Of a stretch of 64,000 bases of DNA, positions 3,346-27,958 are shown piece by piece. Made by a program: the position numbers and the translations under genes. Each line of letters opens with the position of its first letter. Position 1 is the stretch's first letter. This DNA comes from Escherichia phage vB_EcoM_UP17. The stretch lies in sequence record LR746137; one strand, given 5' to 3'. Below the pieces are notes generated by a model. The model was given only the letters and a program-made list of their open reading frames with translations, made no database searches and was not told the DNA's origin.

Positions 3346-4047
3346 ATGGCAGCAATGACTCCACAACAGTCGGTGAGAGCCGTCTATAAGGCAGAACAGG
3401 AAATCAACTCTACCGAGAATAAAAATACCTCGGCATCTACTGTAAAGGGTGATAATGGTTTCTGCATTTTAGCAAGTGTTTATAATAGTTCAAGTGATCA
3501 ATACATTCAAAACTTTAAAGCAATTACTTTCGATTCGGTCCCTGAAGTAGGTGTAACTCGTGAGGCAGATGTTACAAGTTTTCCAGTAGAATCAGGATCG
3601 GATGTAAGTGACCACGTTCAAATAAAAAACAACAGATTTAAACTTTCAGGTATAATTACCGAAACACCAATTCGGCTTATGCGGGATCAATTATACAGTG
3701 CAGGTGTAAATGGGGCAAGGATTTCTCAAGCAATAGAATATCTAGATCAAATATTTGAGTCAAGACAACCAATAGTTCTTTTGACAGAACACAGGACTTT
3801 TGAAAATGTTATTCTCAAAGGCTACTCTTATGATTATAAATCTGAATTTGCTATGCAATTTGATTTAGAGTTTGAACAAATCCGTCTCGTTTCTAAGGCC
3901 ACTACTAATGCTATTGCTGTAAAAACAGCACCAAATAAATCGACTGGTGGTGATGTGAAAGGTCAAGTTGCTTCGAATGGTCCTAAGTCAGATATTACAG
4001 TAAGAACTGCTGAAGCTACTAATACCCCAACAAACAACGGAGGTTAA
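3346..4047 (+). CDS. Hypothetical tail/baseplate protein
   Basis: 233 aa ORF in the position between tape measure and hub genes. Confidence 0.5.
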   Translation: MAAMTPQQSVRAVYKAEQEINSTENKNTSASTVKGDNGFCILASVYNSSSDQYIQNFKAITFDSVPEVGVTREADVTSFPVESGSDVSDHVQIKNNRFKLSGIITETPIRLMRDQLYSAGVNGARISQAIEYLDQIFESRQPIVLLTEHRTFENVILKGYSYDYKSEFAMQFDLEFEQIRLVSKATTNAIAVKTAPNKSTGGDVKGQVASNGPKSDITVRTAEATNTPTNNGG

Positions 4048-5483: not shown

Positions 5484-6217
5484 TGGATGCATTAAATTTT
5501 GTCACAGCAATGCGTGGCTTAATGACAGAACAATTAGCAGAAGTCCATACAGCCCTGCCAGTCCGTGTGACTGGCGTTAATTATGGTGCTAAAACTGTCA
5601 CTTTAGAATCTATTGTTAAAAACACACGATCTAGTGAAGATGAAATAGATTACCCTACTTTTGAAGATGTTCCTTTTATGGTTAATGGAGGTGGGACAGG
5701 AAGAATCTCATTCCCTATTAAAGCTGGCGATTTAGGAACTGTTATATTTTCTGAAAGAGATCCTTCTAATGCACTGCAAACTAGTGGAGAAACCTCTTCA
5801 TCATCCACTTTTATGCAGCCTTGTGGATTATACCCTATTTGTTTTATTCCCAAAATAGCTACAGGAACAGATTCAACAGAAGCTGTAGATTCTGAAAAGG
5901 TAGTTATTTCTAATAACAAAAACACGTACGCTTCTTTCGACCCTACAGGTAATATTTCAATATGGAATAGTCAAGGGATGAAAATAGATATTACTACCTC
6001 CGGTATTACTATTACAGATGGCACAGGAACTTTGGATCTAAAAGGTGGTAATTTAACTTTCAAAGGCGGCGTGGCAGATATCAATGGTCTTAAAATAGAC
6101 CAGAACGGTTTGATGACAGATGGTAATGGCATCGGATTCCATACTCACACGCACACGGTTCGTAACATTCAGAGCGGTAACTCAAGTGCCGAGTCCTTAA
6201 AACCAACAGGAGCCTAA
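5483..6217 (+). CDS. Baseplate central spike (gpV/gp5-like)
   Basis: 244 aa; C-terminal Gly-rich repetitive beta-helix-like region (GITITDGTGTLDLKGGNLTFKGGVADINGLKIDQNGL) ending in a His-rich tip GIGFHTHTHT. Confidence 0.5.
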   Translation: MDALNFVTAMRGLMTEQLAEVHTALPVRVTGVNYGAKTVTLESIVKNTRSSEDEIDYPTFEDVPFMVNGGGTGRISFPIKAGDLGTVIFSERDPSNALQTSGETSSSSTFMQPCGLYPICFIPKIATGTDSTEAVDSEKVVISNNKNTYASFDPTGNISIWNSQGMKIDITTSGITITDGTGTLDLKGGNLTFKGGVADINGLKIDQNGLMTDGNGIGFHTHTHTVRNIQSGNSSAESLKPTGA

Positions 6218-6218
6218 C

Positions 6219-6842
6219 ATGGGAATCCCTTTTGACTTAAAACTTGGGCCAAACAACGACCTCATCATGGATGATGGGGATTTGGTCCTCACTACAACCA
6301 GAACAGAAATTGCAGCACAAACTCTTGGGATAACTCTGAACACGTATCGTGGGGAGTGGTTTTTAAATACTAACTTCGGTGTTCCTTACTTACAAGAGAT
6401 TATTGGTGTTGCTAGAAAGAAAGATATTGTAGACAGAATATTTTTAGCAGAGATTGCCAAAAACGTTTACATAGATACAATAAACAGTTATAAATCTGCT
6501 TATGATATGGATCAACGTTATTACTCAATGACAGTTATGGTCACAGTTGGAGCAGATACAGTAACATCTATATTCAATACTCAACCTTCTGAAGAGTTTA
6601 TTTACCCTGAAGCTGGTGAAGACAATGCAGCGATCATTTGTGAAGCTTACAGTATTGTTGAGAATTCGAATAGACTTTATCGCTTTATCAACTTTGTTGG
6701 TTTGCCACGTGATACCTACTCTACTTGGTGGAATGAATGGTCTACAGAGTCAGCAGGGGAAAGAATCATGGTTAACGAAAAAGGTGATGCATTAGCTACA
6801 AACAATAATTTCGGTATAACAGCTATGACAGGAGTAGAATAA
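6219..6842 (+). CDS. Baseplate wedge protein (gpW/gp25-like N-terminal domain)
   Basis: N-terminal ~100 aa resemble the gp25/GPW pattern (DL..GDLVL...IAAQTLGITLNTYRGEWF); longer than canonical W. Confidence 0.5.
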   Translation: MGIPFDLKLGPNNDLIMDDGDLVLTTTRTEIAAQTLGITLNTYRGEWFLNTNFGVPYLQEIIGVARKKDIVDRIFLAEIAKNVYIDTINSYKSAYDMDQRYYSMTVMVTVGADTVTSIFNTQPSEEFIYPEAGEDNAAIICEAYSIVENSNRLYRFINFVGLPRDTYSTWWNEWSTESAGERIMVNEKGDALATNNNFGITAMTGVE

Positions 6843-7315
6843 TGGCAGATTTAACTACGATCAAAGTTTCTGATCTTACACAAACAACCTCTGTATCTGA
6901 TACAGATTTCTTTGTAACAGATCAGGCTGGAATAACAAAGAAGACTTCTTTGAAAGTGCTGTTGAGTGGTGCAGGGGTAACTAGAAACCGTTTAAATGCA
7001 CGTGGAACAGTAACTAGCACCTTGGCATTAGATATTAGTTCAGCAGAATATTTTTCGGCAACTTTATCTTCTGCAACATGCACAATTAGTTTTACTAATA
7101 TTCCAGTAGCAACGAATGCAGTTTTAAACTTTACTTTAGCTTTGCGTCAAGGAAGTGGCGCAAATAAAGTCGTATGGCCTTCTTCTGTAAAATGGAGTTT
7201 TGGTCGTTCCCCAGTTTTGAGTTATCGTCAAGGTGCAACAGACACTTTTGAGTTTATCAGTTATGATAATGGTGCAACTTGGACAGGTAGCTTAGTTTTA
7301 GCAGGAGTTATTTAA
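6842..7315 (+). CDS. Hypothetical structural protein
   Basis: 157 aa, stop/start overlaps with both neighbours. Confidence 0.5.
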   Translation: MADLTTIKVSDLTQTTSVSDTDFFVTDQAGITKKTSLKVLLSGAGVTRNRLNARGTVTSTLALDISSAEYFSATLSSATCTISFTNIPVATNAVLNFTLALRQGSGANKVVWPSSVKWSFGRSPVLSYRQGATDTFEFISYDNGATWTGSLVLAGVI

Positions 7316-10191
7316 TGTCAAGAGTTAAGCACAATATTGACAACACGTTTCAGTTGATTGAAGGGTTGGTTCAGTTTTTGGAAAGAAATACTGGGCTTAC
7401 CATAGATCCTACGGTTCAGCATTACATTATCAACCCACAAAACGTATTGGCGAACAACAGACACTTTATTAACTGGACAGCGCAGGAAGGGCAACCAAAC
7501 GGTGACGCTACTACCGAAGGTCAATCTGTGCTTATCACTGGTTTTGCTTATGCATATTTGGCTACAGGGGATAAAAAATATCTTGAATCTGCCGAGAAGT
7601 ATTGGCAAGCCTATATAGATCACTTCTTCGGGGGCCAACCTATTCCTGATCCTCCGGCTAAGTATCGTCCCAACTGGATCATCAATGGTAAAGAACCACG
7701 TTTAGCACATTACCCTCTCACAGATGATGGGTATCCTACGCACGGTGGGTTCAAAGGTAGCATGATGACTTGGATTAACGGAAGGACTGTTATTCCTAAA
7801 GGTGCACCGCATTGGGGGGAATACTTAGATAAAGCTTGGTTTGCTTTCAATGGCAATCTTGGTTGGAACTCCGTTAACGCAACAGTTTATGCAACTAATC
7901 CAGATGGTTCAACCAACTGGAAAGAATATGGAGATCAGTGGGACGTTGAATGGATTATAGATCGTCTAGGACGTAAAGTTGATTGGGATGGTAACATTTT
8001 ATCTACAGGTCACAGCTTCGCAGAATATGGAACAGTGCAACTTAAAAATGCTTCTGTGAACGGTGATTATAAATTCAACTACGCTACATGCAACCCTGTA
8101 GAACACGGTGGATATCTGCTTAAGCGTAATGAGATGTGGCATAACCGTCCTGTAAACGTTCCGGTAGAGTTAGGTTATCAAGATAATGCTTCCGATGCTG
8201 AAACGTGGTGGTGTGATGCAAACTACTTGATGTATCAGATCACAGGAGAGAGAAAATACTGGCTTTGCTGGCAATCTTCTTTATTGTTGTGTCAAGACTA
8301 CTCAAACATCGATATGTTTGATAAATTCTTCCGTAGATCTACGACAGCAATAATTCCTTTTACAGATGGTATCTCGTATGATTACTCATACCCATCTACA
8401 GCAATACCTAAATATTCTCGTGACGAATTAGGATACACAGTAATTCGCCAAGATGTTTCAGCACAAACAACTCTAGAACAACAGGCAGTTTGGTTCAGAG
8501 TAGATCAGAATTCAAAACTGCGTATTGAGTTTCAAGGTGTAGATGATGCAGGGGAAGGTGTTCTTTTCCGTCCAGAGCTAGAATTAAGCAAAACTAAGAG
8601 TGAAACAGACACAGTGACATATCGTTGTGGCTTACCTCTTGGTGCAGCTAATATGACTAAGATGGATATACCTTTATCTAGTTTTATGCGCACCGAACCT
8701 CCTGGAGGTGGTGTATATATTATTGCTGAACCCAGAATTATTGTTGACTGGGGAAGCAATACTGTGATACAATATAAATATGCAACTGGTATTGCTGGGA
8801 CAAATAGTGATCAGATAGTTTCTGCTAATATGGATTCAGATGGTGGTTTTACTGTTGGGTTTTGGTTAACACCAACTAAAACAGCCAATTTAAAATCTAT
8901 TACATATCGTTCATACGCAGATGATTTTAACATCACTATTACGGATTCCGCAGGTTGGAGATGGTGGGCCATGTTAGAAAAAACAAATTCTGCATGGGTT
9001 ACTAAAGCTTTAAGTCCTGCTGATTTCAAATTAAGCACTTGGCAACCCAATCATAACGACACAGAGACAAAACCTTCGTCAATAAACCTGACTGCTGTTG
9101 ATCAGATCAGCATTGCATTGGATTCTGAACCTGCAAATGGCTTGACAGGGGCAATCGATTTTTATTGTGTTAACGATATCCCATCTTTGTATTCTTCAGC
9201 CGCTGGTGATGATTACACAATGTATTTCAGGGTTACAGTTTCATCTGAAAATCCTTATACAGCAAAACTTGGAGATTGTACAATACTGGACTATAAACTT
9301 GACAGTTTGAATTATACTCCAGGAATCATTCCATTTTCCAATATTAGTGATCCTAACACAGCATTATATGACGGTTGGCGTGGTATTCCTTACCCAGGTT
9401 ATCAATACCCATCCTTATATTGTTTTAAAGGGAGAGATATTGACTGGGTTCGTATGAACAACAGTATAGACTTTTTATATGATTCACAAATGTGGTTTTA
9501 TAATAAGTTTGCCCCTGTGATGCCTGGGCCAATGGCACAAGCTTATGTTTGGGATCGTTGGGATGCTCATAAATATGGAAACAAGAATGAGTTCACAATG
9601 TATCATTGGAACGATAAAGCTTGGGATGGTTATGAAGCACGAGCATTCTTCTGTGCGTGTCATACAGTATACGAACTGAAACAACGAGGAGCAGAAGTTC
9701 CTGAAAAACTTTTAACAGTTTGTAAAAACTGGATCAATTATCTGAAGTGGTTCCAAGATAACAACGAAGGAAGAACACCAACAATATTTTATCCCAACGG
9801 AGAAGTGGCTGCGCCTGTAGATGACTTTACAAGTCACATGTCTGCGCTCTTTATGGCGGGATGTGCTATAATGGGGATGGCTGGATATGATTCAGAAATT
9901 CCTAACATTAAAATAGTAGCAGATCGCTGTTTTGAACTTATTCAGGAAAATTATATTGTTCTTGGTCCTAATCACGTTATGAATGGTTGTTGGAGTGCTG
10001 CCCCTAGACCAGACAGTGATAACGGAGTCTTCTTTGGCTTCCACGCCGGAGAGTTGTTACGTGGTTTTGGGTTGTATGCCTTATACAAAAAACTTAATCC
10101 CCAAAATGCATTACCTGTTTTGGATTCGAGCAATATTCCTGCACTTACTGTTTTGACAATGGCAAACATTAGTGTGGACGTTACCGAGTAA
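7315..10191 (+). CDS. Large virion-associated protein (958 aa), function unknown
   Basis: Long ORF, Trp/Tyr-rich; located between baseplate W-like and J-like genes. Confidence 0.5.
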   Translation: MSRVKHNIDNTFQLIEGLVQFLERNTGLTIDPTVQHYIINPQNVLANNRHFINWTAQEGQPNGDATTEGQSVLITGFAYAYLATGDKKYLESAEKYWQAYIDHFFGGQPIPDPPAKYRPNWIINGKEPRLAHYPLTDDGYPTHGGFKGSMMTWINGRTVIPKGAPHWGEYLDKAWFAFNGNLGWNSVNATVYATNPDGSTNWKEYGDQWDVEWIIDRLGRKVDWDGNILSTGHSFAEYGTVQLKNASVNGDYKFNYATCNPVEHGGYLLKRNEMWHNRPVNVPVELGYQDNASDAETWWCDANYLMYQITGERKYWLCWQSSLLLCQDYSNIDMFDKFFRRSTTAIIPFTDGISYDYSYPSTAIPKYSRDELGYTVIRQDVSAQTTLEQQAVWFRVDQNSKLRIEFQGVDDAGEGVLFRPELELSKTKSETDTVTYRCGLPLGAANMTKMDIPLSSFMRTEPPGGGVYIIAEPRIIVDWGSNTVIQYKYATGIAGTNSDQIVSANMDSDGGFTVGFWLTPTKTANLKSITYRSYADDFNITITDSAGWRWWAMLEKTNSAWVTKALSPADFKLSTWQPNHNDTETKPSSINLTAVDQISIALDSEPANGLTGAIDFYCVNDIPSLYSSAAGDDYTMYFRVTVSSENPYTAKLGDCTILDYKLDSLNYTPGIIPFSNISDPNTALYDGWRGIPYPGYQYPSLYCFKGRDIDWVRMNNSIDFLYDSQMWFYNKFAPVMPGPMAQAYVWDRWDAHKYGNKNEFTMYHWNDKAWDGYEARAFFCACHTVYELKQRGAEVPEKLLTVCKNWINYLKWFQDNNEGRTPTIFYPNGEVAAPVDDFTSHMSALFMAGCAIMGMAGYDSEIPNIKIVADRCFELIQENYIVLGPNHVMNGCWSAAPRPDSDNGVFFGFHAGELLRGFGLYALYKKLNPQNALPVLDSSNIPALTVLTMANISVDVTE

Positions 10192-10199
10192 GGGGTAAA

Positions 10200-12353
10200 A
10201 TGAAACAAGCTATATTTACTGTCACGCGAGACAAGAGAGTAAATGCGAGTTCATTTAACTACACGACTGTTGATGGAACAGCAGTCGCTGGTAGAGATTA
10301 TATTGCAAAATCGGGAACACTTGTGTTCCCTGATGATGCTGATTCTGCTACCATTGTGGTTGAAGTATTTGAACGACCAAAGAACTCAATAGATCTTAAC
10401 TTCTCCCTCCAAGTTTCAGGGATTAGTCAAAATAATATGATGGTTGAAACAACCATCAATTGTATTATAACTACTATCCAAGAAAATACCACTCCAATAA
10501 CTTGGACTACAAAAGACGTTAAAATGTTCTCTCCTATGTATTGGACAATAGATTCTCAAGCAACGGAAAGTTGTTCTATTGTATCTCATGGAGACTCTTT
10601 TACTGCAAGATTTGTAAACAGAACAACAGCAGGTTTGGCAGGGGTTATCTGGAGCACAGTTGACAAATATGACCATAAAGGTGTTGGGTATTTACCCCAC
10701 ACAGATTTAAGTTCAGAGAAACTTTGGTTTAAAATGGAAATTAGTCAAAACATGCCAGGTTTTAAAGAAGAACCTTTGGTGCCGACTTTGACTGTAACTC
10801 TCCTGGATAAAAGTGTTCATTATGTCAGTTTAGGATTCTACGCTTCAGATATTTCAGAAGATGGTAAAACAGCTACAATCAAGTTAGATTTTGGTAATAT
10901 CTTTTCTGGCCCTAATAATGATATTCCTTTGGATATGAGTGCTGTAGATAATATTTTCTTCTCTTTGATTACAGCAAGGTATGAAGAAATAGAAGAGGTT
11001 GTACCTATTGACAGTCAAGAGGCTTGGTTTACTTTCACTCTTCTTGAACCTACTTCTGGTTACAGTATGATGAAAGTCAGCAACCTTGTCCAGCCTGAAC
11101 ATGATATTCGCATGTGCACATCTTATGATGATATGTATAACCTGACTCCAGAGAGAGTTATTTATAATACATATGCACTAGGTTATCGTGGAATGATTAA
11201 CCATTACAACGGAATGTCTCACTATTATGAGTTCTCATGGAACGGAACATCTTGGGCTTTAAATAGATCTGTTTTCCTGAATCCGGCTACAGAAGCTTGG
11301 CTTAACAGTTTCCATTCTATAGCTAATGAAAATGGCTACACAATAATGAACTCTTTGAGTTTTGAGTTGATGAGCACAGTTTGTCCTGTAGAATGGGTTC
11401 AACATGATTGGAACGATGCTCTTGCAGCAACAGGTTATGAGCCGCCTAGTTATGTGTTATCTCCAACTATTGACGAAGGTATGGAATATTTGCAAAATGT
11501 TATTAATAAAATAGCATCTATTTCGCAAGCTAATAATATTCCAGTTGTCATTCAAATTGGTGAGCCTTGGTGGTGGTATAATACAGCAAGTAAAATGCCT
11601 TGCATATATGATTACACTACCAAACTGGCATTCAACACAGAAACAGGTTTATTTGCACAAGATGCAGGAACAATAGATAATTATAAAACAGGAACGCCGT
11701 TTGACGAATACTATGCATTTTTGTCTCGTAAACTAGGATTAAGAGTTACAAAGTTTGCAACAGATACTAGAGCAACTTACCCAGGAGCCAAGGTAACATT
11801 GCTTCCGTTCTTGCCATCAATTATCGGCAACGGTTTGATGGAGAAAGTTAACTTCCCGTCTGATTACTACATTCCTGAAGCTTTTGATTTTTATTGTTCA
11901 GAGTGTTACGACTGGCTTCTGGAAGGTAAAATGATGAAAGCATTCGATGCAATTACCATACCACATGAAAAATTAGGTTTTGAATATTCTGATATTCACT
12001 ATCTTTCGGGTTTTGTTCCAGATGCTACTCTTGCACCTTTGTATGGCTTCGATCCTGAATCAAACTACCGCACGTATCTTTGGAAAATGATTATAGGTAA
12101 TATAGTGTTGAACGCCAATAAGTTCAATGGGCTTACACAATATATATGGGCCTATCCTCAAATAATGCATGATTCCATCACGGTAGTTAATTCTCAATCC
12201 CAAGTTTTCTATATGGGTAATGTGCCTTTGAATTGTTATTTGCAAGATATCACTCTTAAACAGGTAAATGTTGAGATTGCCACTATAAGTGGAATTACAT
12301 TAGCCACTAAATCTGGAGAAGATTTAGTAACAACACAAAAATTTTATATATAG
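10200..12353 (+). CDS. Virion protein with N-terminal Calx-beta-like domain
   Basis: N-terminus DGTAVAGRDYIAKSGTLVFPDDADSATIVVEVFER resembles the Calx-beta motif; 717 aa. Confidence 0.45.
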   Translation: MKQAIFTVTRDKRVNASSFNYTTVDGTAVAGRDYIAKSGTLVFPDDADSATIVVEVFERPKNSIDLNFSLQVSGISQNNMMVETTINCIITTIQENTTPITWTTKDVKMFSPMYWTIDSQATESCSIVSHGDSFTARFVNRTTAGLAGVIWSTVDKYDHKGVGYLPHTDLSSEKLWFKMEISQNMPGFKEEPLVPTLTVTLLDKSVHYVSLGFYASDISEDGKTATIKLDFGNIFSGPNNDIPLDMSAVDNIFFSLITARYEEIEEVVPIDSQEAWFTFTLLEPTSGYSMMKVSNLVQPEHDIRMCTSYDDMYNLTPERVIYNTYALGYRGMINHYNGMSHYYEFSWNGTSWALNRSVFLNPATEAWLNSFHSIANENGYTIMNSLSFELMSTVCPVEWVQHDWNDALAATGYEPPSYVLSPTIDEGMEYLQNVINKIASISQANNIPVVIQIGEPWWWYNTASKMPCIYDYTTKLAFNTETGLFAQDAGTIDNYKTGTPFDEYYAFLSRKLGLRVTKFATDTRATYPGAKVTLLPFLPSIIGNGLMEKVNFPSDYYIPEAFDFYCSECYDWLLEGKMMKAFDAITIPHEKLGFEYSDIHYLSGFVPDATLAPLYGFDPESNYRTYLWKMIIGNIVLNANKFNGLTQYIWAYPQIMHDSITVVNSQSQVFYMGNVPLNCYLQDITLKQVNVEIATISGITLATKSGEDLVTTQKFYI

Positions 12354-12361
12354 GAGTAAAA

Positions 12362-14428
12362 ATGTCAACTACAATTACTAATTTACCCGAAACATCAAAA
12401 GTTAATGGTTCTGATTACCTGGTTTTAGATCAACCTGATAAGACTGTTAAAAGCACAGTTTCCAACTTTCTTACTGATACTGGGGTGGTTTTAGCCACCC
12501 AGTTGAAAGATACAAATGGAGCAGATTTAATACAATCCTCAAATGGTAATACTGTTCAGGAAGAGTTGAATAACAATCTTCTTAATGATCGTGAACAGTG
12601 GCGGCGTAGTCTTGCCGAGGCTGGGTTAACTCTTGTTGATGGTAGTTTTGAAGAAGGGGCTACAGTGGGCAGTGTAACTGATGCTGTTTGGCACATTGCT
12701 GGTGGACAGTGTTATACATGGGACGGTGCTCTCCCTAAAACTGTTCCTGCTGACTCAACCCCTGAATCATCTGGTGGGGTTGGTGGCAGGAAGTGGGTTA
12801 GTGTTGGTGATGCGTCTTTAAAGACCATGCTTTATGGGTGGCAGGGCTATTCATTCATTGACGGTGGCAACTTATCATTATACAAAAAGAAAGGTATCTT
12901 TGGTGATTCAGGAGCAATTCAAGATAAATACGAAGTAATTAAATATTCTGATGGGTTCTGGTATAAATATAACAACTCATTGCCATTCTCTTATGGTTCA
13001 GCCCCTGATTCCACTTGGACTAACGTAGGTAAGCTGAATGGTTTTGACGAGAATACCCCAGAGAATTTCGGGGCGGTTGTAAATAACAGTACGTATGACT
13101 GCCTGGATGCCATCAACAAGGCAATGGCGACTGGATTTTTACGACTCACTGCTGGTGCTACTTATTTTGTTAGCGATGAAGTTGTTATCCCATCGAATTT
13201 AGTGATGGAAACAAACGGCGCAACCATTAAAGCGATGAGTGGATATTCATGGGGCGGAAAGGCTGTAGTTCGAGCCAGCAAAAAACCAGTAGGAACATCC
13301 CCGGATCTTTCATTGCCTGAACAACAAGTTCGTGGAATTAGGCACATTGGTACATTAAATATTGATGCTAACAATGTTGCGCCTTACGGTTTTTATGGTT
13401 TTGGTGTAGTTGCAGAATCTACCACAGACATTATATATGCTTATAATGCCACAGAAGTTGGAATTGTACTTCTTGGGAGTTGGTATCATAAAGTAAATCA
13501 ATATATGGCAATTGATTGTGCACGAGGTGTATCTTTGGCACATGGTTTCTCCGGTGAAACCGGAGACGTAAACGTTAATGGTGTTGAATTTGGTGTCGTC
13601 GCTGCGTATAACACATCAAAATCTTTGTCCTATGGGTATGATCCGTATTCATCATCTTTAACCCCACAGCTCATAGGTGCCGGTGTCACTCTCGGACAAG
13701 GATTGGCATCAAGAATAGGAACATTAATAGCTGAAACCACAGCAGGCGCTGGTTTAGCTACTGTTAACGCCGTTAGTTGGTCTGTTGGTTCTATGTACTT
13801 CGGAAAATGCAGTGAAGCGCTTGAAGATAGTGCAGAGCCTGATATTGCGATATTATCAACTACAGGAAATGTTGAGGACCACGTATTTGACGTCGGTAAT
13901 ATCCATTTTGGCATAGGGACTGGTATACTGCAAAGAGCAACGGCAAGTGAGTTTCTCAACATCCAATCCATATACCGTATAGACAATAAAAAAACATGGC
14001 ATAGTTCTTCAAAAGCGTCTTCAAGTTTTGTAAATTTCGTAAACTATTACGTTCTCAATCCTTATGATTACGTTAAACCTGCCCAACTGACTACTGACGT
14101 TGGCAAAGAGGTTGTCAGTTCATCGTCAATGCTTAACTTTAAGGATTTTTCAAATACACCAAGTATACCTTTTGTATACACTGGAGGTGAGATAGCGATT
14201 CACGTTTCCATCTCTTCCGGTAGTGTAGTATCTACTGAATTCCAGGTGACTTCTGATTCAGGAATAGAATACATCACATGCACTGGCTCGCCTTTTCAGT
14301 TTAACCTTACGCAGCCGAGGACGGTAGGTAATACCTATACCGTGACGCTAGCAACTGCGCAATCGGCAGCTTCCGGTCAAGGGGCGATACATATACTGAA
14401 ACAAAAACCAAGCCAATGGCTTAGGTAA
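12362..14428 (+). CDS. Tail fiber/spike-like protein
   Basis: 688 aa, Gly/Ser/Thr-rich; position within the tail module. Confidence 0.45.
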   Translation: MSTTITNLPETSKVNGSDYLVLDQPDKTVKSTVSNFLTDTGVVLATQLKDTNGADLIQSSNGNTVQEELNNNLLNDREQWRRSLAEAGLTLVDGSFEEGATVGSVTDAVWHIAGGQCYTWDGALPKTVPADSTPESSGGVGGRKWVSVGDASLKTMLYGWQGYSFIDGGNLSLYKKKGIFGDSGAIQDKYEVIKYSDGFWYKYNNSLPFSYGSAPDSTWTNVGKLNGFDENTPENFGAVVNNSTYDCLDAINKAMATGFLRLTAGATYFVSDEVVIPSNLVMETNGATIKAMSGYSWGGKAVVRASKKPVGTSPDLSLPEQQVRGIRHIGTLNIDANNVAPYGFYGFGVVAESTTDIIYAYNATEVGIVLLGSWYHKVNQYMAIDCARGVSLAHGFSGETGDVNVNGVEFGVVAAYNTSKSLSYGYDPYSSSLTPQLIGAGVTLGQGLASRIGTLIAETTAGAGLATVNAVSWSVGSMYFGKCSEALEDSAEPDIAILSTTGNVEDHVFDVGNIHFGIGTGILQRATASEFLNIQSIYRIDNKKTWHSSSKASSSFVNFVNYYVLNPYDYVKPAQLTTDVGKEVVSSSSMLNFKDFSNTPSIPFVYTGGEIAIHVSISSGSVVSTEFQVTSDSGIEYITCTGSPFQFNLTQPRTVGNTYTVTLATAQSAASGQGAIHILKQKPSQWLR

Positions 14429-14435
14429 AACAAAA

Positions 14436-14451
14436 CCCCGCTTCGGCGGGG
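14436..14451. terminator. GC-rich hairpin (CCCCGC-TTCG-GCGGGG), weak terminator
   Basis: Perfect stem 8 nt after the stop at 14428, but the downstream tract on + is A-rich; the same core as the 3227 hairpin. Confidence 0.35.
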
Positions 14452-14661
14452 AAATTATAAAGGTACGATCAGGGACTTCATTACGATTCACACAAACTAT
14501 GTCCTGCAAGCGCATGTCATCGCCATGTGATAAAATGATGAAAACATATCGTAGCAGGGTTAATCTTGTCTTTAGTTACTATCGTACTAACTCAAAGTGT
14601 TGTCACTACCACTGCAAGCCCCTCCAAAGAGGGGCTTACTTAGAAAAACAAAGAGGTTGTT

Positions 14662-14811
14662 ATGAATGAAATGTTCTCCCAAGGCGGTATTGCCCCAGGT
14701 ATTACTGCCATTAGTTTTAGTGCTGCTGTACTTGTGCATTCAGCGGGTTCTGTAGACCTTGGGGAATTAACTGTATCTCGTGATTTAAAAAGTAATGAGA
14801 ACGCACTATGA
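14662..14811 (+). CDS. Small hydrophobic protein (49 aa)
   Basis: ATG at 14662 preceded by AAGAGG (14651-14656); hydrophobic core GGIAPGITAISFSAAVLVHSAG; stop overlaps next ATG (ATGA). Below the ORF-track length cutoff. Confidence 0.35.
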   Translation: MNEMFSQGGIAPGITAISFSAAVLVHSAGSVDLGELTVSRDLKSNENAL

Positions 14812-15050
14812 GAAAGTTTTTAATCGGAATGTTTTGTACTTATCCAAACAACAAAATCAGTTCTACTAAAGTGTGGAACGCACTGGGAATGCTAACCATG
14901 ACAGGCATGTTTATCTTTTTAGGAATAGAAAAAGAAATTCCTGAATGGATGGGTTGGGCTTTTGTTTTCATGATAACTCCTTCTCGCCTCATGAAAAATC
15001 TTATTGATTTACGCTGGGGCAGATCACAATCTACCAAAGAGGATGACTAA
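14808..15050 (+). CDS. Small membrane protein (two predicted TM segments)
   Basis: 80 aa with hydrophobic stretches MLTMTGMFIFLGI and WMGWAFVFMI; translationally coupled to the previous and next genes. Confidence 0.5.
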   Translation: MRKFLIGMFCTYPNNKISSTKVWNALGMLTMTGMFIFLGIEKEIPEWMGWAFVFMITPSRLMKNLIDLRWGRSQSTKEDD

Positions 15051-16537
15051 TGGACGAATATGGTTTGACAGATGCGGGATTTGTAATCCCGACTTTTGAC
15101 GATGTTTTAAACAATTATATGACAGCAGTAAAAAACACATTTGGTGCAGATGCAGCCACTTCGGAAGATACTGTGATCGGACAACTGTTTAGAATAATTG
15201 CATACACAGATTACACATTGTGGGAAGGTATGCAAGGTGTTTATAATACTCAAACACTGGATGGTGCAGAAGGTATTTATCTTGACGAAATCTTTTCTAA
15301 ACGCGGTTTCTATCGAGCAGGGGCAGCAGCAAGTACAGGTTATGCCTATGTTAAGAGTAATAACAAAGCAGCTTGGACTTATGAGCTAGGCACGGATATT
15401 TACTTCAACTCTGACAGTGATATGAACTACTATGTTAGCACACCAACTATGTTGAATGCTAAGATTGCAGCTTATCAAATCTCTCGTGCTAATGCAACTG
15501 CTACAGGTGTTCCAAATATTACTTTTTATGCACAAAGTGCGGTGGATGGAGGACTAAACAGTAAAACACTTGCACCTGGTTCTTCTACATTTATAACAGA
15601 TCTTGAAACTTTTATCAAGGCAAATTTAACAGAAGCTGATCGTAGTCTTGTATTTTCTGATTCAGGTAACTTATCAATTGGTTTTACTTCTTTAACCAGT
15701 GATACTCCAGTGGGACTAGTAACTCCTATCAAATTTTATGCCAGTGTTCCAGTTGGAACCAAATGGAGTGAAATTCCAGTAGTTGCAGCAGAGAAAGGAT
15801 ACAATCCTGTTGGTGTGGAGTCTATTACAGGGATATCTTCTACCTTTACAGGTTATCTTGACAGTGGTAACTTTTATTCATTTTCTCCTGGTCGGGATGT
15901 TGAGACAGACGCAGAATTCCGCTCTCGTTTCAATGACAACGTTGATGAAGCTAACGCAGGGACACGAGCAGCTATTGTGAAAGCTCTGCTACTTACAGAT
16001 GGTGTTACTAAGGTGAAGATTTATGATAACCCTACATTACATGATCAAGAACATGCTCCAGCTATGACTTTCCAGACTATAGTTTATGGTGGCAGTGCAG
16101 AAGAAATTGCAAATGTTATCTATAAAACCAAACCAATCAACACTTTGACGCACGGAACAACTAACATAACAGTTACAACAGAAGATGGAGGACAAGAAAT
16201 TATTCGCTTCTCTCCTGGTGCTTCTGCTATGTATTCCGTAAAACTTGTTTATCAAACTGTCAACGGAACAACTTTAAGTGGAACAGAAAAACAAAACATC
16301 GTAGAAGCTTTACAAAACCTGCAAGCTTACTTTGAGTTAGGTTCTTCAGTAACGAACGATCAAATCAAAGGTGTTATTTATGCAGCACTTGCTTTTGGAC
16401 GCTTGACTTCTCTTCGTGTTTATGTTAAACTTAATACTGAGGATGACAGTAAATACACAGAGAATAATATAGTTCCTGCTTATAATGTTGTCCCTTCTTT
16501 TGACCTTGATAACATTTCTTACGAGTATGGAGTGTAA
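15050..16537 (+). CDS. Baseplate J-like protein (gpJ/gp47/gp6 family)
   Basis: 495 aa; size and N-terminal region consistent with Baseplate_J; followed by an I-like gene and a fiber gene. Confidence 0.5.
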   Translation: MDEYGLTDAGFVIPTFDDVLNNYMTAVKNTFGADAATSEDTVIGQLFRIIAYTDYTLWEGMQGVYNTQTLDGAEGIYLDEIFSKRGFYRAGAAASTGYAYVKSNNKAAWTYELGTDIYFNSDSDMNYYVSTPTMLNAKIAAYQISRANATATGVPNITFYAQSAVDGGLNSKTLAPGSSTFITDLETFIKANLTEADRSLVFSDSGNLSIGFTSLTSDTPVGLVTPIKFYASVPVGTKWSEIPVVAAEKGYNPVGVESITGISSTFTGYLDSGNFYSFSPGRDVETDAEFRSRFNDNVDEANAGTRAAIVKALLLTDGVTKVKIYDNPTLHDQEHAPAMTFQTIVYGGSAEEIANVIYKTKPINTLTHGTTNITVTTEDGGQEIIRFSPGASAMYSVKLVYQTVNGTTLSGTEKQNIVEALQNLQAYFELGSSVTNDQIKGVIYAALAFGRLTSLRVYVKLNTEDDSKYTENNIVPAYNVVPSFDLDNISYEYGV

Positions 16538-16539
16538 AA

Positions 16540-17169
16540 ATGGCAGTGAGTGTTGACCATGTAACAACTTGGGCCAGTATCAATGAAGATGTTAAAAACC
16601 TTCTGATTGAAGATTTTAAATCTTCTCCTAACATTGTCAAGCTCCTCTACATCGTATCCAGTGAAAAGCAAAAGATAGATCAGGCAATGATCTATCTTGC
16701 TAAACACCGCTTGATCTCCACAGCCACAGGCAAATACCTAGATATCTTAGGAGAAGAAATGGGGATCGAACGTAATGGCTCTGATGATGAAGAGTATAGA
16801 ACAATATTAAAAATCAGGGCTTACCGCGTAGCCTCATCGGGGACTCGTGGTGACATAATTGATATCTTCGCCCGTTTCACAGGAACAGAGCGTGAAACGC
16901 TTAATACTTACGTAGGTTTGAATAAAACCTTTGATGTGTTTTTCTACAACCTGTGTCTTCAATCTGATCAAGCTTTAGAGCAGTTGCTAAGTGTTTTCCC
17001 TATTATTAGTAGCTACCGTCTTGGAGCAAAAGCAGGATCAGCTTTTGGTTTTAGTTCTTATTATGCTACCAAACCGCCTCATGGTATTGGTGGTTTAGGT
17101 TCCCTGTACATGGAATCTACTGGGGATGAAACAGGACGCATGTGTACGCTTCTCAAGCAAATAGATTAA
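16540..17169 (+). CDS. Baseplate protein (gpI-like by position)
   Basis: 209 aa immediately after the J-like gene. Confidence 0.4.
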   Translation: MAVSVDHVTTWASINEDVKNLLIEDFKSSPNIVKLLYIVSSEKQKIDQAMIYLAKHRLISTATGKYLDILGEEMGIERNGSDDEEYRTILKIRAYRVASSGTRGDIIDIFARFTGTERETLNTYVGLNKTFDVFFYNLCLQSDQALEQLLSVFPIISSYRLGAKAGSAFGFSSYYATKPPHGIGGLGSLYMESTGDETGRMCTLLKQID

Positions 17170-17178
17170 GGAGTTTAA

Positions 17179-18240
17179 ATGGCGAAGCCAATATATTATC
17201 CTGACTGGGCTACACAAACTGTAACGCTCCCAGGAACTTTAAACACAAACAAAATTAGACCTAAAGAAACCATCCGCACAGTTGGTATGGATTATGGTCA
17301 AATCATGACTTGCGAAGAAATGAACTGGATTCTTAATAATATCGGTTTATGGATTCGCTATTTGGTGGATGATTTTCTTCCAACTTTACCTAATACCTAC
17401 TTGCCTTTAGTGGGAACTAAGATTACAATGGCAGGTGATGCTACTGGTGAGGCCACTTGGAACGGTAACAAAGAAGTTACTTTATCTATCCAAGTTCAAG
17501 ATAACAGTCATAATCACTTGTCAGCAAACATTACAGATGCTACTAGTTCAACAGTAACACCAAACGTGTTGGTAAAACGTGATGCGGGTGGTGCTATTTA
17601 TGGTGGCGATGTTTATGTTAACGGTACTTCCACAACAGATCCTGCAACACTGTTCTTCAAAAACTTTGCAGGACAAACAAATGGTGAGATTTCTGCCGAG
17701 TATCAAAGCGGAGGTCAGCTTTACATCTATCGTAGAAATCCTAGCACAGGTAGTGTATCGGCAGGTGTTCGTTTATATGATGCAGGTTATGTTCTAATAG
17801 ATAATCCAAGATCGAACAGTGGACAAGATACTTCTAACGGAAATGCTTTAGTTCGTTTAGATTATCTGAACTCTCGTTTGACTTCCCTTCAGAACACATT
17901 GCAGACGAATATTAACACTGTTCAAAACAACTTGAATAATGTTAACAACAACCTCTCTTCTCGTATAAACAATGTAGAAAGTAATCATCAAAGCCAGATT
18001 ACAAATAACTACAACTATGCTAACGGAACCTTTGTAAGAGATATTCGTTATACTAGCCAAGGTGTGTATTATCCACCAGGGAACGAGGTTTCTTGGACTT
18101 ATATCTGTTCTTCTGGTTATGTTCTTTCTGGTATTATCGTACAGGAAACAGGACGTAGCTCTGCGGATAACATCGGTGGGGTTTACTTCAAACGCCTCCA
18201 GCGCAACGTTAACGGAAACTGGTACGATATTGGAGGCTAA
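17179..18240 (+). CDS. Tail fiber protein
   Basis: 353 aa, Asn/Thr/Ser-rich with coiled-coil-like NTLQTNINTVQNNLNNVNNNLSSRINNVESN; followed by a chaperone-like gene. Confidence 0.5.
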   Translation: MAKPIYYPDWATQTVTLPGTLNTNKIRPKETIRTVGMDYGQIMTCEEMNWILNNIGLWIRYLVDDFLPTLPNTYLPLVGTKITMAGDATGEATWNGNKEVTLSIQVQDNSHNHLSANITDATSSTVTPNVLVKRDAGGAIYGGDVYVNGTSTTDPATLFFKNFAGQTNGEISAEYQSGGQLYIYRRNPSTGSVSAGVRLYDAGYVLIDNPRSNSGQDTSNGNALVRLDYLNSRLTSLQNTLQTNINTVQNNLNNVNNNLSSRINNVESNHQSQITNNYNYANGTFVRDIRYTSQGVYYPPGNEVSWTYICSSGYVLSGIIVQETGRSSADNIGGVYFKRLQRNVNGNWYDIGG

Positions 18241-19134: not shown

Positions 19135-22100
19135 ATGGCAACATTCCCAACGTATCCAGCAACGTCTCTTGAACAGGGCGTAGATCTGGTTATTTTCTCG
19201 TCCAATCAACTTCATGATGTTATTAATGGAAGTGCGACAGAAAGTATTGAGACAGAATCAGGGTTGATACCAACCCTGAGAAAAGCCCTTGTTGATAACT
19301 TTTTCTTTAAAAGCCCATTGGATTGGGCGCAAGGCACAAATGAAACGGTTTTTAACCAACTACGTTATTTTCAGAATGGGGTATTGAGCGGTTATTATTA
19401 TGCTCCTAATGCTACATTGGTAAACCCAATCCCTATGCAAGGTACTCCAGTAGGAGATAACAACTGGGTATTGTGGGGATTGAAGACAGAACAATTGGCA
19501 ACAGAAGTCACACCTTGGGTATATTCTGGTGCAACTGGTTATGAAACAGTAATCAGTCCTCCTTACATCTTTGATAGTGCTATTGTTACGATCAATGGTG
19601 TTATTCAGGTTCTGGGGGAAGCTTTCCGTATAGAAGATAGTAAGATCATCTTATCTGAACCTTTGGGACACGATCCTGCAACAGGACTGCCAAACAAGCT
19701 TTTCGCTTATATTGGTAAAATCGTAGCTTCAGCAGATACAGATCCTAATCTAGAGAACCGTCTTGTTAGTTTAGAAACAAAAACGGAAGAACTAACAGAA
19801 AGCATGGATAAAGTCCCTCTGCAAACTATTGCTCGTAAATATGGTTTGTTAGATGGTGAGGTGGCTTACGCAACAGCAGGTCAATCGTTAACAGGGATTA
19901 AAGCTCTGTATGATCCGGTAGCACAGTCTTCCTACACATTACCTCCTAACATCACAGGAACTTTAACATCTTTGTCTGTTTCTGGAGTAATGACTTATTC
20001 TGGAGGGTCTGTAGATCTTTCTGCACTAGCTGTTGAACGTGGACAGTTTGTCCATTTGCCTACAAGCTTTGGTAATAATGTAACTCTGACAGCTAAAAAT
20101 CAGACGATTGGACGTGGTGCTGGTCGTTATCGTTGGGCTGGAAGTTTACCAAAAAGTATTTTGGCCTCTGACACATTAGAGACAAGCGGTGGATTAGGTC
20201 CAAACGCATGGGTTCTAACTAATACGGAAGGACTGTTAACCCCTCGTGGTGGAACATACAACGATTTATTCGATGTTGTCTACTTGTCAGAATTTGCTAA
20301 CAATACAACTACCTATACCACACCAGAAGCAGCTTTCCAGGCGGCACTGTTAGCAGCAAAAGCTTCGAAAAGTAAGATTCTCGATGCTTACGGTTGCGAT
20401 ATGACTTTCACGACAAGCTCTTTTGATATTCAAGGTATCACTTTGCGTGGTGGTGTGTTCCGTGGTCAACGCGACTATCGTGTGCAGAATGCTACAGTAG
20501 AAGGCACAACTTTCCGTAACTCTCGTGTTATGTATTGGGGTGGTGCTGTGCGCATGTTCGATTGTTTGTGGGACGGTGCTCCTCGCGCAGGTCAAGTTGG
20601 TAGCTTGGTATTCCAAGGCAACCCAATATCAGGTACTTTTGAAATTGATAATTGTACTTTTAAAAACGGGTTATATGGCATCCTTCAACAAGGGACAGGA
20701 GAACCAGTAACACGCGGTGTCTTCCGTAACCTTACCTTCATGGACATGCAAGGTGATGCGATAGAACTGAACGTCATCAATAAACATTATGATGATGGTT
20801 GTGTGATTGAGAATATTTACCTGTCTAATATCGATGGGACTAACGCTCCTATTCCTCTGTCCAACTGGGGTATCGGTATCGGTGTAGCTGGTAAAGGACC
20901 ATATGGTTACGGAATCCCTGATGATCAATATTGCAAGAATATTACAATTCGTAACGTTTTTGCAAAACGTTGCCGTCAGATTGTCCACGTAGAAGTTGGT
21001 CGTAATATTTCTATCGAAAACATTCATGGCGATCCAGATCAAACCGTATCTGTTGGGACAGGTTTGGCAACTGGCGCAGTTGTAATGTATGGAAGTAAAG
21101 ATTTTACGATTGACGGTGTTTATGGAGAGCCTAAAACAGACGGTAGCACACTTGCAAGTAATATCCGTATGATTTATTTGGAGTGGGGAACTAACGCAGT
21201 TCTGGACGAAGAGGGTAATCCGGTAGTTCCGGCACAGGGTAGACCTTCAAACCCATGCTTTAACTATTCTGTTCGTAACATTCACACCAAAACTGGGCGT
21301 GTTTTTGCGGGAGTTTCCGCTGGGCCAGGTTATGAAAACAGAGTTAGCTTTGAAAATATTCGTTGCGCTGCATTGCAGTTGTTCGGTATAGCTTCTTGGC
21401 TTTCAATGTCTAACATCACCTGTAATATCTTCGATTGTGTTGGTCAACCTGAATCTGGTCCAGGGACATTTTATGATGGATTCTTCCGTAGAGAAAAATC
21501 TGTTCTTGAAATGGTTAACGTAAACTGTTACCCAGATGGCAAGACGATGGTTACTGGTCGTCCACAGTGGAGCCGTTGCCGTTACTCGGATATTCATCGT
21601 GTCAACTGTAATGTTGAAGCTAATATGTATACCAATATCGCAGGTGGTATTGGAGCTATTGTAGGGACAACGGGCAAAGTTTATTACTTAGAGCCTAATC
21701 CTAGTCGAAACATTGATGGAATGCATTTCCCAACAGGGAAAGAGTTTGACAAAGGTGATATGATAGTCAAGGCGGATAATACGTTCTTCCTTGTAACAAC
21801 AAGTGGGGCATATATTCCAGATATCCCAGCTTTCGGTATTCGAGCTACACAAGCAGGAGATACCTTCCTGACACAGAACTTGACTCCTAACGGGACAGCA
21901 ACAAATGCTTCTTGGTTGTATCATTACCCTCTGTCAGCAGGGACACGTATCCGTATTCCTGGTGCTGGCGTAGGTGGAGCAGATTTGGACACAGTTATTA
22001 CTCGTGCACCTTATCAAGATAATGATACGTGGACTAACCCAGTTAAAATAGACATTGCAGATCCAATTGTAACGCCTACAAGTGCTGGAGTTAGAATTAA

Positions 22101-22188
22101 AACCATACCTAATGATTCCAGTAATGTTTCTGTAGGTAATACTGCGGTTATTCGCCCAACGCCAGTAGTAGATGTGCCAACAACCTAA
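19135..22188 (+). CDS. Tailspike with beta-helix (pectate-lyase-like) central domain
   Basis: 1017 aa; central region with repetitive Asn/Gly/Val-rich beta-helix-like rungs. Confidence 0.5.
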   Translation: MATFPTYPATSLEQGVDLVIFSSNQLHDVINGSATESIETESGLIPTLRKALVDNFFFKSPLDWAQGTNETVFNQLRYFQNGVLSGYYYAPNATLVNPIPMQGTPVGDNNWVLWGLKTEQLATEVTPWVYSGATGYETVISPPYIFDSAIVTINGVIQVLGEAFRIEDSKIILSEPLGHDPATGLPNKLFAYIGKIVASADTDPNLENRLVSLETKTEELTESMDKVPLQTIARKYGLLDGEVAYATAGQSLTGIKALYDPVAQSSYTLPPNITGTLTSLSVSGVMTYSGGSVDLSALAVERGQFVHLPTSFGNNVTLTAKNQTIGRGAGRYRWAGSLPKSILASDTLETSGGLGPNAWVLTNTEGLLTPRGGTYNDLFDVVYLSEFANNTTTYTTPEAAFQAALLAAKASKSKILDAYGCDMTFTTSSFDIQGITLRGGVFRGQRDYRVQNATVEGTTFRNSRVMYWGGAVRMFDCLWDGAPRAGQVGSLVFQGNPISGTFEIDNCTFKNGLYGILQQGTGEPVTRGVFRNLTFMDMQGDAIELNVINKHYDDGCVIENIYLSNIDGTNAPIPLSNWGIGIGVAGKGPYGYGIPDDQYCKNITIRNVFAKRCRQIVHVEVGRNISIENIHGDPDQTVSVGTGLATGAVVMYGSKDFTIDGVYGEPKTDGSTLASNIRMIYLEWGTNAVLDEEGNPVVPAQGRPSNPCFNYSVRNIHTKTGRVFAGVSAGPGYENRVSFENIRCAALQLFGIASWLSMSNITCNIFDCVGQPESGPGTFYDGFFRREKSVLEMVNVNCYPDGKTMVTGRPQWSRCRYSDIHRVNCNVEANMYTNIAGGIGAIVGTTGKVYYLEPNPSRNIDGMHFPTGKEFDKGDMIVKADNTFFLVTTSGAYIPDIPAFGIRATQAGDTFLTQNLTPNGTATNASWLYHYPLSAGTRIRIPGAGVGGADLDTVITRAPYQDNDTWTNPVKIDIADPIVTPTSAGVRIKTIPNDSSNVSVGNTAVIRPTPVVDVPTT

Positions 22189-26998: not shown

Positions 26999-27018
26999 GG
27001 GAACCCGCAAAGGTTCCC
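26999..27018. terminator. Bidirectional rho-independent terminator between convergent blocks
   Basis: GGGAACC-CGCAAA-GGTTCCC hairpin flanked by an A-run upstream (26992-26998) and T-run downstream (27019-27027). Confidence 0.7.
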
Positions 27019-27054
27019 TTTTCTTTTATAAAAACTCTTTATAAATCAATAAGA

Positions 27055-27942: not shown

Positions 27943-27958
27943 TATTATCTCCTCTACA

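Follow-up and report, generated by a model that had tools for sequence, protein, structure and literature searches.

A phi92-type host-recognition gene block, probably a lateral receptor-binding module, between the W-like and J-like baseplate genes of Escherichia phage vB_EcoM_UP17

In Certrevirus PBES 02 and the P2-like prophage L004, no other genes come between the baseplate genes V, W, J and I; this is not so in the 64,000-nucleotide stretch of Escherichia phage vB_EcoM_UP17 DNA analysed here (sequence record LR746137; "the window"). Which genes separate W from J in this phage, and what might they contribute to adsorption? A sequence-only reading had placed about 7 kb between them, encoding three large virion proteins and two small membrane proteins, and had suggested that these add adhesins or enzymes to a multivalent adsorption apparatus. 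The window is from a Phapecoctavirus, among the relatives of phAPEC8 and phi92; a literature search found no publication on phage UP17 itself. We conclude that positions 6842 to 15049 are very probably the form that the phi92 gp140-gp144 lateral receptor-binding module takes in Phapecoctavirus, set between the W-like and J-like genes (Table 1).

Table 1. Features of the W-to-J interval and its surroundings (window coordinates)
Feature	Position	Strand	Remarks
W/gp25-like sheath initiator, 207 aa, left boundary	6219-6842	+	phi92 gp139 orthologue, 74% identical
p157, small fibre-like protein, proposed adapter for p958	6842-7315	+	gp140 orthologue, 84% identical; PHROG 9017 'tail fiber protein'
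p958, predicted (alpha/alpha)6-barrel glycosidase-like protein, beta-rich insertions	7315-10191	+	gp141 orthologue
p717, Calx-beta + NCTSP_N + TIM barrel, putative NGR-binding fibre	10200-12353	+	gp142 orthologue
p688, conserved 5' tailspike part: anchor (aa 1-54) + Tail_spike_N (aa 93-150)	12362-12819	+	
p688, exchanged 3' tailspike part, putative beta-helix receptor-binding/depolymerase module	12820-14428	+	from ~residue 154
GC-rich hairpin, 3' edge of exchangeable cassette	14436-14451		sequence alignment
49-aa remnant of orphan tailspike N-terminal anchor-domain gene	14662-14811	+	102 aa in relatives
p80, small membrane protein, 80 aa	14808-15050	+	gp144 orthologue, 77% identical; PHROG 1322 'membrane protein' (2e-26)
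J/gp6-like baseplate wedge protein, right boundary	15050-16537	+	gp145 orthologue, 80% identical; PHROG 6
I-position wedge partner	16540-17169	+	gp146 orthologue, 87% identical
GpS-like short fibre	17179-18240		
Colanidase	19135-22188		
gp151-like fibre	22250-24274		

Both flanks of the block are baseplate genes. The product of the left one matched PHROG 4233 (2e-79) and PHROG 120, 'baseplate wedge subunit' (6e-20), with no match to Pfam GPW_gp25, and cryo-EM identified its phi92 counterpart gp139 as the sheath initiator (PMC13450770). W had been correctly named as the left neighbour; the W-like gene ends at 6842 and is distinct from the ORF ending at 7315. W and J are indeed separated, by 8.2 kb rather than about 7 kb, and the interval includes the gp140-like gene p157. 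The J-like assignment at 15050 held, with PF04865 Baseplate_J scoring 33.2 bits (cut-off, 21.1) beside the PHROG and phi92 matches; gp145 is modelled in the phi92 wedge, forming a heterotrimeric wedge with gp146 (PMC13450770). The gp146-like product in the I position matched PHROG 4056, 'baseplate protein' (7e-81), and PF11041 DUF2612. Certrevirus PBES 02 lacks the block and has its W-like gene directly beside the J-like one, which bears out its description as an insertion into V-W-J-I.

The three large ORFs lie where the sequence-only reading had put them (958, 717 and 688 aa, the last at 12362-14428). Each starts with ATG just downstream of a GGAG-type ribosome-binding site, and their homologues are strong (E = 0 for PHROGs 2871 and 6040; in database searches p958 had 306 and p688 had 413), which together exclude chance ORFs. 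Reciprocal BLASTP and the annotated phi92 locus matched phi92 gp135-gp152 gene for gene, most pairs being 70 to 87% identical; gp148 and gp151/gp152 were lower, and gp150 was matched only in part. Gene order is conserved from the tape measure gene through gp152, and window and phi92 share the order hub, spike, gp139, gp140, gp141, gp142, spike slot, gp144, gp145, gp146, so that by sequence and synteny the three genes are one-to-one counterparts of gp141, gp142 and gp143. Between its spike and gp144-like genes the window carries two features that phi92 lacks, the 49-aa remnant gene and a conserved non-coding segment of about 230 bp; it also differs in an additional 891-aa tail protein downstream (24316-26991). 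In a published survey this protein is TfpM1 (890 or 891 aa), which is missing from justusliebigviruses. Identity to Phapecoctavirus TSP7_1 was 98.2% at the nucleotide level across 7315-14428.

The block is thus already known as the host-recognition genes of this group of E. coli phages, described since 2012, when Schwarzer et al. reportedly introduced the phi92 'multivalent adsorption apparatus'. Phi92 gp141, gp142, gp143, gp150 and gp151 are listed as tail fibres or tailspikes of that apparatus (PMC5380687, PMC10269720). The earlier suggestion of extra adhesins or enzymes agrees with this literature, with the predicted folds of p958 and p688 and with the N4 sheath domains of p717. The 2026 phi92 cryo-EM study contains no model and no mention of gp141 or gp142, places gp143 at the tip of fibre I by inference only and leaves the fibre II density without an assigned protein (PMC13450770). 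The rV5 and W70 proteomics papers gave no verifiable coverage of direct orthologues of p958 or p717.

We next consider the proteins in gene order. The C-terminal domain of p157 (about residues 55 to 155) immediately precedes a gp141-like gene in about 70 of 80 IMG/VR viral loci, and the pairing extends to siphovirus and podovirus contigs. As a pair, the gp140-like and gp141-like genes are portable, occurring in contigs of myoviruses, siphoviruses and podoviruses, and no Pfam family covers them. From gene adjacency and fusions, we infer a docking order in which p157 would be a small adapter, its conserved C-terminal domain holding p958, given the near-obligate adjacency of the two genes. The N-terminal motif of p157 resembles that of p688.

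The second protein, p958, has the same length as phi92 gp141 and is 83% identical to it over 958/958 aa. Structure prediction, a check proposed with the sequence-only reading, returned a glycosidase-like fold for p958 and a CBA120-type beta-helix tailspike fold for p688. In p958 the predicted fold is a six-hairpin barrel, of which 326 residues aligned at 2.9 Å to a GH8-annotated enzyme; two beta-rich segments, about 170 and 310 residues long, break up the barrel. Sequence identity to (alpha/alpha)6-barrel glycoside hydrolases (GH8, GH76, GH88, GH105) is only 8 to 14%. Pfam and NCBIfam searches of p958 matched no glycoside hydrolase family, its sequence found nothing in the PDB, and a 42-sequence profile gave just GH76 at E = 0.21 (the NCBIfam search of eight proteins as a whole yielded nothing useful). 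Because no such family is matched by sequence, the barrel could be catalytically dead. Across the 42 homologues (43 to 83% identity), D64, D172, D294, E296, W298, D336, D750, E913 and several Trp/Tyr residues are invariant, an acidic and aromatic pattern that sugar-binding or catalytic clefts typically show, and a review table labels gp141 a glycosidase (PMC5380687). We propose that p958 is a large peripheral protein built around a glycosidase-like barrel, with the fold predicted and both the activity and the substrate inferred.

Natural fusions point to a position for p958. A gp141-like sequence is joined to Tail_P2_I inside the V-W-J-I cassette of a P2-like prophage (P0088), to NCTSP_N and a TIM barrel in an SU10/N4-like podovirus contig (P0106) and to fibre repeats in a third protein (P0093). 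Since these fusion partners are P2 gpI, a gp142-like protein and distal fibre repeats, p958 may be the proximal platform of a branched fibre. We offer more tentatively, as a reading somewhat short of even chances, that the gp140-like and gp141-like genes together encode a portable appendage made of an adapter and an (alpha/alpha)6 glycanase. It would sit between W and J or be fused to gpI in myoviruses, and would also occur in siphovirus-like prophages and in SU10/N4-like podoviruses, there fused to the NGR-binding module; together with gp142 it would be the phi92 'fibre II' plus 'fibre I' arm.

The third protein, p717, is 77% identical to phi92 gp142 over 717/719 aa. The Calx-beta-like N terminus noted earlier belongs to this protein (PF03160, residues 4 to 82; 42.4 bits against a cut-off of 27). 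It is followed by PF23844 (residues 107 to 292) and PF23845 (299 to 658; 4e-79), i.e., NCTSP_N at 59.7 bits and TIM-barrel_NCTSP at 266.5 bits (cut-off, 27), and the N4 sheath shares both domains. A PDB sequence search with p717 returned N4 proteins and Calx-beta domains only, with matches to N4 Gp64 (8e-30) and gp65 (1e-12), the two subunits of the sheath heterodimer (PDB 9LC0, 9YF4). Residues 101 to 164 and 270 to 344 of p717 align to gp65 residues 51 to 114 and 344 to 416, and residues 361 to 606 align to Gp64 residues 114 to 367. The short gp65-homologous domain contains GMSHY at residue 338, within an ...NLTPER...GMSHY... stretch common to gp65 and p717; GMSHY is an invariant motif linked to the N4 glycan receptor (NGR) (bioRxiv 10.64898/2026.04.02.716166). 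Unlike the N4 heterodimer, p717 is a single 717-aa chain from a myovirus with an extra Calx-beta domain, and it does not have the C-terminal domains D9-D10 through which gp65 binds the N4 tail plug.

The N4 sheath binds NfrA, whereas NGR binding has been proposed for its myoviral homologues, the gp142 family being the proposed NGR-binding fibre (PMC8594841, PMC8669472, bioRxiv 10.64898/2026.04.02.716166). Dependence on wecB/nfrB (NGR synthesis) was shown for Vequintavirinae and phi92-like phages (PMC8669472). The 2026 NGR predictions cover Vequintavirus, Justusliebigvirus and Enquatrovirus and do not name Phapecoctavirus (bioRxiv 10.64898/2026.04.02.716166), and a poly-GlcNAc deacetylase-like catalytic domain has been claimed from Phyre2 (PMC8594841). 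By analogy with phi92-like and rV5-like phages, and with the homology and the motif seen here, p717 is a putative NGR-binding fibre that would bind, and possibly modify, the NfrB/WecB-dependent receptor through its gp65/gp64-like domains.

The fourth protein, p688, matches the vB_EcoM_UP17 tail spike at every residue and is a mosaic. Its residues 1 to 54 are 94% identical to phi92 gp143 and residues 1 to 154 are 90% identical to the Ro121c4 tailspike, with PF18668 Tail_spike_N at residues 93 to 150 (63.9 bits against a cut-off of 25; 1.5e-17). DNA homology stops at 12513 against phi92 and at 12819 against Ro121c4. Phi92 gp143 is an endosialidase, whereas the receptor-binding part of p688 is an unrelated beta-helix module. 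Among 50,697 phage records, only TSP7_1 has this module at 99% identity or more, the next best being at 42%. The module is 79 to 93% identical to tailspikes of phages of about 40 to 45 kb and of P22-like Head_binding prophages, with more distant copies (about 40%) in T7-type tail fibres. In the AlphaFold model it is a right-handed parallel beta-helix (pLDDT > 90 over about residues 230 to 520). The best Foldseek matches were CBA120 TSP1-4, K2-2 TSP and Depo32 (E = 4e-13 to 1e-8 for TSP4, TSP3 and TSP1). The TSP1-4 spikes of CBA120 (Ackermannviridae) likewise carry Tail_spike_N followed by a parallel beta-helix, but there the platform is a TSP2/TSP4 XD-domain scaffold and here it would be gp140/gp141/gp142. 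The anchor-type domain of p688 is also present in p1017 and p674 and in the orphan 102-aa gene. We propose that p688 fills the exchangeable gp143 slot, its conserved first 50 to 150 residues docking to the complex, and that the target of the horizontally acquired module is a particular O- or K-polysaccharide, which it would bind and probably cleave.

Small features follow the spike. The hairpin at 14436-14451 is kept in Ro121c4 despite its different tailspike and is terminator-like on the minus strand only; an Rfam search of 14380-14860 found nothing near gathering scores. A promoter and terminator scan of 6000-17500 gave counts at chance level (35 against 33.7 and 8 against 7.7), and its convincing hairpins scored on the minus strand only. 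Compared with TSP7_1 and Ro121c4, the remnant gene has lost 159 bp in frame; the 102-aa version of relatives aligns with tailspike PHROGs 18484 and 11182 over about their first 90 residues, and with PHROG 7992 over residues 327 to 419. One of the two small membrane proteins announced earlier is p80, with a hydrophobic segment at about residues 22 to 40 and homologues that adjoin fibre genes in rV5-like and Certrevirus loci. The other, ORF 14499-14669, lacks a ribosome-binding site and a PHROG match, reaches a hydropathy of -0.29 at most and is unlikely to be a gene; the real second small gene is the remnant.

How the block arose and where its products act can be read in other ways. It might be a recent horizontal island in the P2-like baseplate operon of a single phage, as the adjacency of W and J in Certrevirus and the gp140/gp141-like pairs in unrelated prophages and podoviruses could suggest. 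We rejected this very improbable reading on composition and on conservation across genera: the GC content of the block (0.38 to 0.41) equals that of its flanks, and its order is shared by every Phapecoctavirus and Justusliebigvirus record that was inspected, and is modified in Vequintavirus and Seunavirus-like loci. As recent exchange is also confined to 12820-14476, acquisition of the block appears to be old and only the spike tip recent. Equally remote, if not a shade more so, is the idea that the three proteins are not part of the virion but, for example, assembly factors or depolymerases that are secreted or set free by lysis, for which the missing gp141 and gp142 in the 2026 phi92 atomic models could speak (PMC13450770). 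The genes lie on the same strand with tight spacing in the tail/baseplate late operon, however, and all PHROG matches of their products are in the tail category. Moreover, the N4 homologues of p717 are structural parts of the N4 virion, p688 carries Tail_spike_N together with a tailspike anchor, and one P2-like prophage encodes gpI covalently joined to a gp141-like module.

A more serious alternative, unlikely in our view but with appreciable weight, takes p958 as a purely structural scaffold, an inactive relic barrel serving as fibre hub, and leaves the block with two receptor-binding proteins. The lack of a CAZy-type family match fits this reading, as do the proximal position of the gp141 module in longer fibres, its fusion to gpI and its high conservation, whereas specificity determinants such as p688 vary. 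The invariant acidic and aromatic residues, the completeness of the barrel at its GH8-like alignment and the glycosidase label in the review table (PMC5380687) count against it.

In the lateral receptor-binding module that we favour, p157, p958, p717 and p688 would join the colanidase, the gp151-like fibre and the GpS-like short fibre in a multivalent adsorption apparatus. The gp141 family is widespread and has a predicted glycosidase-like barrel, yet it is without a curated family or a place in the phi92 virion maps. The third large gene, with breakpoints at 12819 and 14477, is a ready exchange slot for host-range engineering.

A DNA search with positions 7315 to 14428 returned 125 phage records. 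The best match was Phapecoctavirus TSP7_1 (accession no. MW175890), at 98.2% over all 7,114 bases; about 60 further Phapecoctavirus records (including phAPEC8, ukendt, Ro121c4YLVW, and ZCKP1) matched at 97 to 99% over the first 73 to 77% only. Over its full 688 aa, the third large protein has 100% identity to the Escherichia phage vB_EcoM_UP17 tail spike. The window phage therefore belongs to Stephanstirmvirinae, the subfamily that phi92 shares. In BLASTP against the annotated phi92 locus, the window proteins (p, followed by length in amino acids) formed a one-to-one series, tabulated here.

Features of the window and their phi92 counterparts
Feature	Position	Counterpart or source	Identity
p233	3346-4047 (+)	gp135	
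p137		gp136	
p336		gp137 (hub)	83%
p244		central spike	73%
p207 (W-like)	6219-6842	gp139	74%
p157	6842-7315	gp140	84%
p157 N-terminal motif	6842-6980 (residues 8-46)		
p958	7315-10191	gp141	83%, equal length
p717	10200-12353	gp142	77%
Calx-beta	p717 residues 4-82	Pfam	
NCTSP_N	p717 residues 107-292	Pfam	
TIM-barrel_NCTSP	p717 residues 299-658	Pfam	
p688	12362-14428		
p688 anchor	p688 residues 1-54	gp143 residues 1-54	94%
p688 N-terminal motif	12362-12490 (residues 4-42)		
Noncoding stretch	14429-14661		
GC hairpin	14436-14451		
GC hairpin	about 14617-14640		
49-aa gene	14662-14811 (+)		
p80	14808-15050	gp144	77%
p495 (J-like)	15050-16537	gp145	80%
p209 (I position)	16540-17169	gp146	87%
p353	17179-18240	gp147 (short fibre)	
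p181		gp148 (chaperone)	
p111		gp149	
p1017	19135-22188 (+)	gp150 (colanidase)	
p674	22250-24274	gp151	
891-aa tail protein	24316-26991 (+)	gp152 (part)	

The three large ORFs of the sequence-only reading were borne out at their exact positions, each with a GGAG-type ribosome-binding site and homologues in the hundreds. The J-like gene also stood (Baseplate_J above the Pfam cutoff; PHROG 6). The W/gp25-like gene is not the ORF ending at 7315 but p207, whose orthologue gp139 is the sheath initiator according to cryo-EM (PMC13450770), and p157 is therefore part of the insert. Of two suggested small membrane proteins, p80 is credible, but ORF 14499-14669 was rejected, having no ribosome-binding site, hydrophobicity, or family match. 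The idea of a multivalent adsorption apparatus is essentially the published reading of the phi92 orthologues, in which gp141, gp142, gp143, gp150, and gp151 are its fibres and spikes (PMC5380687; PMC10269720; PMC8594841). The block as such is already known, with nothing new in it. Upstream, p233 matches PHROGs labelled "tail fiber protein" and "endolysin," yet its orthologue gp135 is the tube initiator by cryo-EM (PMC13450770); these names are misleading.

Calling the W-J separation an insertion is sound relative to the core cassette. Certrevirus PBES 02 lacks the block: its order is hub, spike, W-like, J-like, I-like, fibre, and chaperone, and its cassette has no homologue of gp140, gp141, or gp142. 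In Septuagintavirus W70, genes of these PHROG families are numbered consecutively. An rV5-like phage has gp140-like, gp141-like, and two very large fibre genes before J, with the gp142-like gene after J-I rather than before J; in Seunavirus-like contigs, the insert comprises gp140-like, gp141-like, and one spike, and gp142 is absent. Because the GC content of the block equals that of its flanks and its gene order is fixed throughout Stephanstirmvirinae, its acquisition is judged old. Recent exchange is limited to the spike body.

This spike is p688. Homology of its gene to Ro121c4 DNA ends at 12819 and restarts at 14477; for phi92, the breakpoints are 12513 and 14826. These breakpoints indicate that p688 retained the lineage anchor and a Tail_spike_N domain (aa 93 to 150) and had its body exchanged. 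Among phage records, only TSP7_1 had the same body. In a large protein database, identity to the body was 79 to 93% for 661-aa tailspikes on 40- to 45-kb contigs, P22-type Head_binding tailspikes from E. coli prophages, and 815-aa proteins from E. coli and Salmonella, falling to about 40% for T7-tail-fibre fusions. Other Stephanstirmvirinae carry pectate-lyase, beta-helix, sialidase, GDPD, or NAGPA domains in this slot, which is sometimes empty or truncated (PMC10269720). Structure prediction, proposed as a check, yielded a beta-helix tailspike; the closest structures, CBA120 TSP4, TSP3, and TSP1, have the fold predicted for p688.

Downstream of p688, the 49-aa gene has a ribosome-binding site and overlaps the start of the p80 gene. 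It derives, by an in-frame deletion of 159 bp, from a gene that encodes 102 aa in TSP7_1 and Ro121c4. The 102-aa product is a tailspike N-terminal anchor domain on its own (PHROG 18484 positions 1 to 94; PHROG 7992 positions 327 to 419), with 42% identity to residues 230 to 300 of the colanidase p1017. The 49-aa gene, which has no counterpart in phi92, may be what is left of a second spike gene. The intervening noncoding stretch is mostly near-identical in phages whose spike bodies differ; its first ~50 bases align patchily with Ro121c4, one hairpin excepted. Its folding exceeds that of shuffles (z = -3.3), and Rfam gave no family match. It could serve in cassette exchange as the 3' homology arm, or it could contain a terminator and a promoter.

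The colanidase-like p1017 is itself 213 aa longer than gp150, with 75% identity in the N terminus (1 to 215) and only 33% in the catalytic part. It holds an inserted anchor and Tail_spike_N-like segment (about residues 229 to 369) and is a second mosaic spike. In the 891-aa tail protein, the N-terminal part is RCC1-like and the middle is Ig-like/gp152-like (PHROG 11922, 4219, 215); only the gp152 part, of 202 aa, exists in phi92, and the gene (TfpM1) is missing from Justusliebigvirus in a published survey. GC skew, positive over about the first 26 kb, is negative between 28 and 62 kb and positive again beyond; the sign changes (~27000 to 28000 and ~62000) are consistent with transcription-direction switches at structural module ends.

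The Calx-beta domain ascribed to one large protein was located in p717. Residues 51 to 114 and 344 to 416 of N4 gp65 and 114 to 367 of N4 Gp64, the subunit pair that makes up the non-contractile sheath of that phage (PMC13434306), align with p717. Residue 338 marks the motif GMSHY, reported to be perfectly conserved in the N4 glycan receptor (NGR)-specific domain common to N4 gp65 and phi92 gp142 (bioRxiv 10.64898/2026.04.02.716166); Phapecoctavirus is not among the genera with NGR predictions in that preprint. Vequintavirinae and phi92-like phages require wecB and nfrB but not the remaining ECA pathway (PMC8669472). By analogy with these relatives, NGR is the putative p717 receptor in a Phapecoctavirus.

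For p958, we found no family in Pfam or NCBIfam and no relative by sequence in PDB. The gp141-like family numbers 306 homologues, without a Pfam model. An AlphaFold model built from 42 homologues was confident (pLDDT 87; pTM 0.83), with helical hairpins at residues 4 to 104, 293 to 330, and 699 to 926 and beta-rich segments between them. Numerous invariant acidic and aromatic residues in the alignment of these homologues are compatible with a putative sugar-binding or catalytic cleft.

How p958 might attach is suggested by its relatives. Sequence for the p157 C-terminal domain immediately precedes the gp141-like gene in the podovirus contig, in enterobacterial siphovirus-like prophages, and in the rV5-like phage, as well as in about 70 of 80 IMG/VR loci. 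Among these loci, the pairing is not seen at contig ends or in five loci (L082 to L086) that lack the gp140-like domain and resemble the P2-like case. The near-obligate pair (loci L004, 8001-11294; L005, 6691-11364; L006, 8319-12823; L010 to L089) spans P2-like prophages, where gp141-like is instead fused to gpI, enterobacterial prophages of siphovirus-like type, SU10/N4-like podoviruses, and myoviruses of large size. One homologue (P0088) fuses Tail_P2_I to gp141-like and occupies the I slot in a P2-like cassette of textbook order, after Phage_base_V, GPW_gp25, and Baseplate_J. Another (P0106), whose contig also carries capsid and adaptor genes of SU10 type, joins gp141-like to NCTSP_N and the TIM barrel, GMSHY included; the Calx-beta domain of p717 is absent exactly in this covalent fusion. 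In P0093 and similar proteins, gp141-like continues into fibre repeats and then a glycine-rich domain. The N-terminal motif common to p157 and p688 (local alignment score of 61, versus 30 ± 6 for shuffles; reached by 1 of 500) suggests a docking peptide of common type. Judging from the fusions and gene adjacency in relatives, p157 would be the adapter and p958 the proximal platform, on which p717 would dock.
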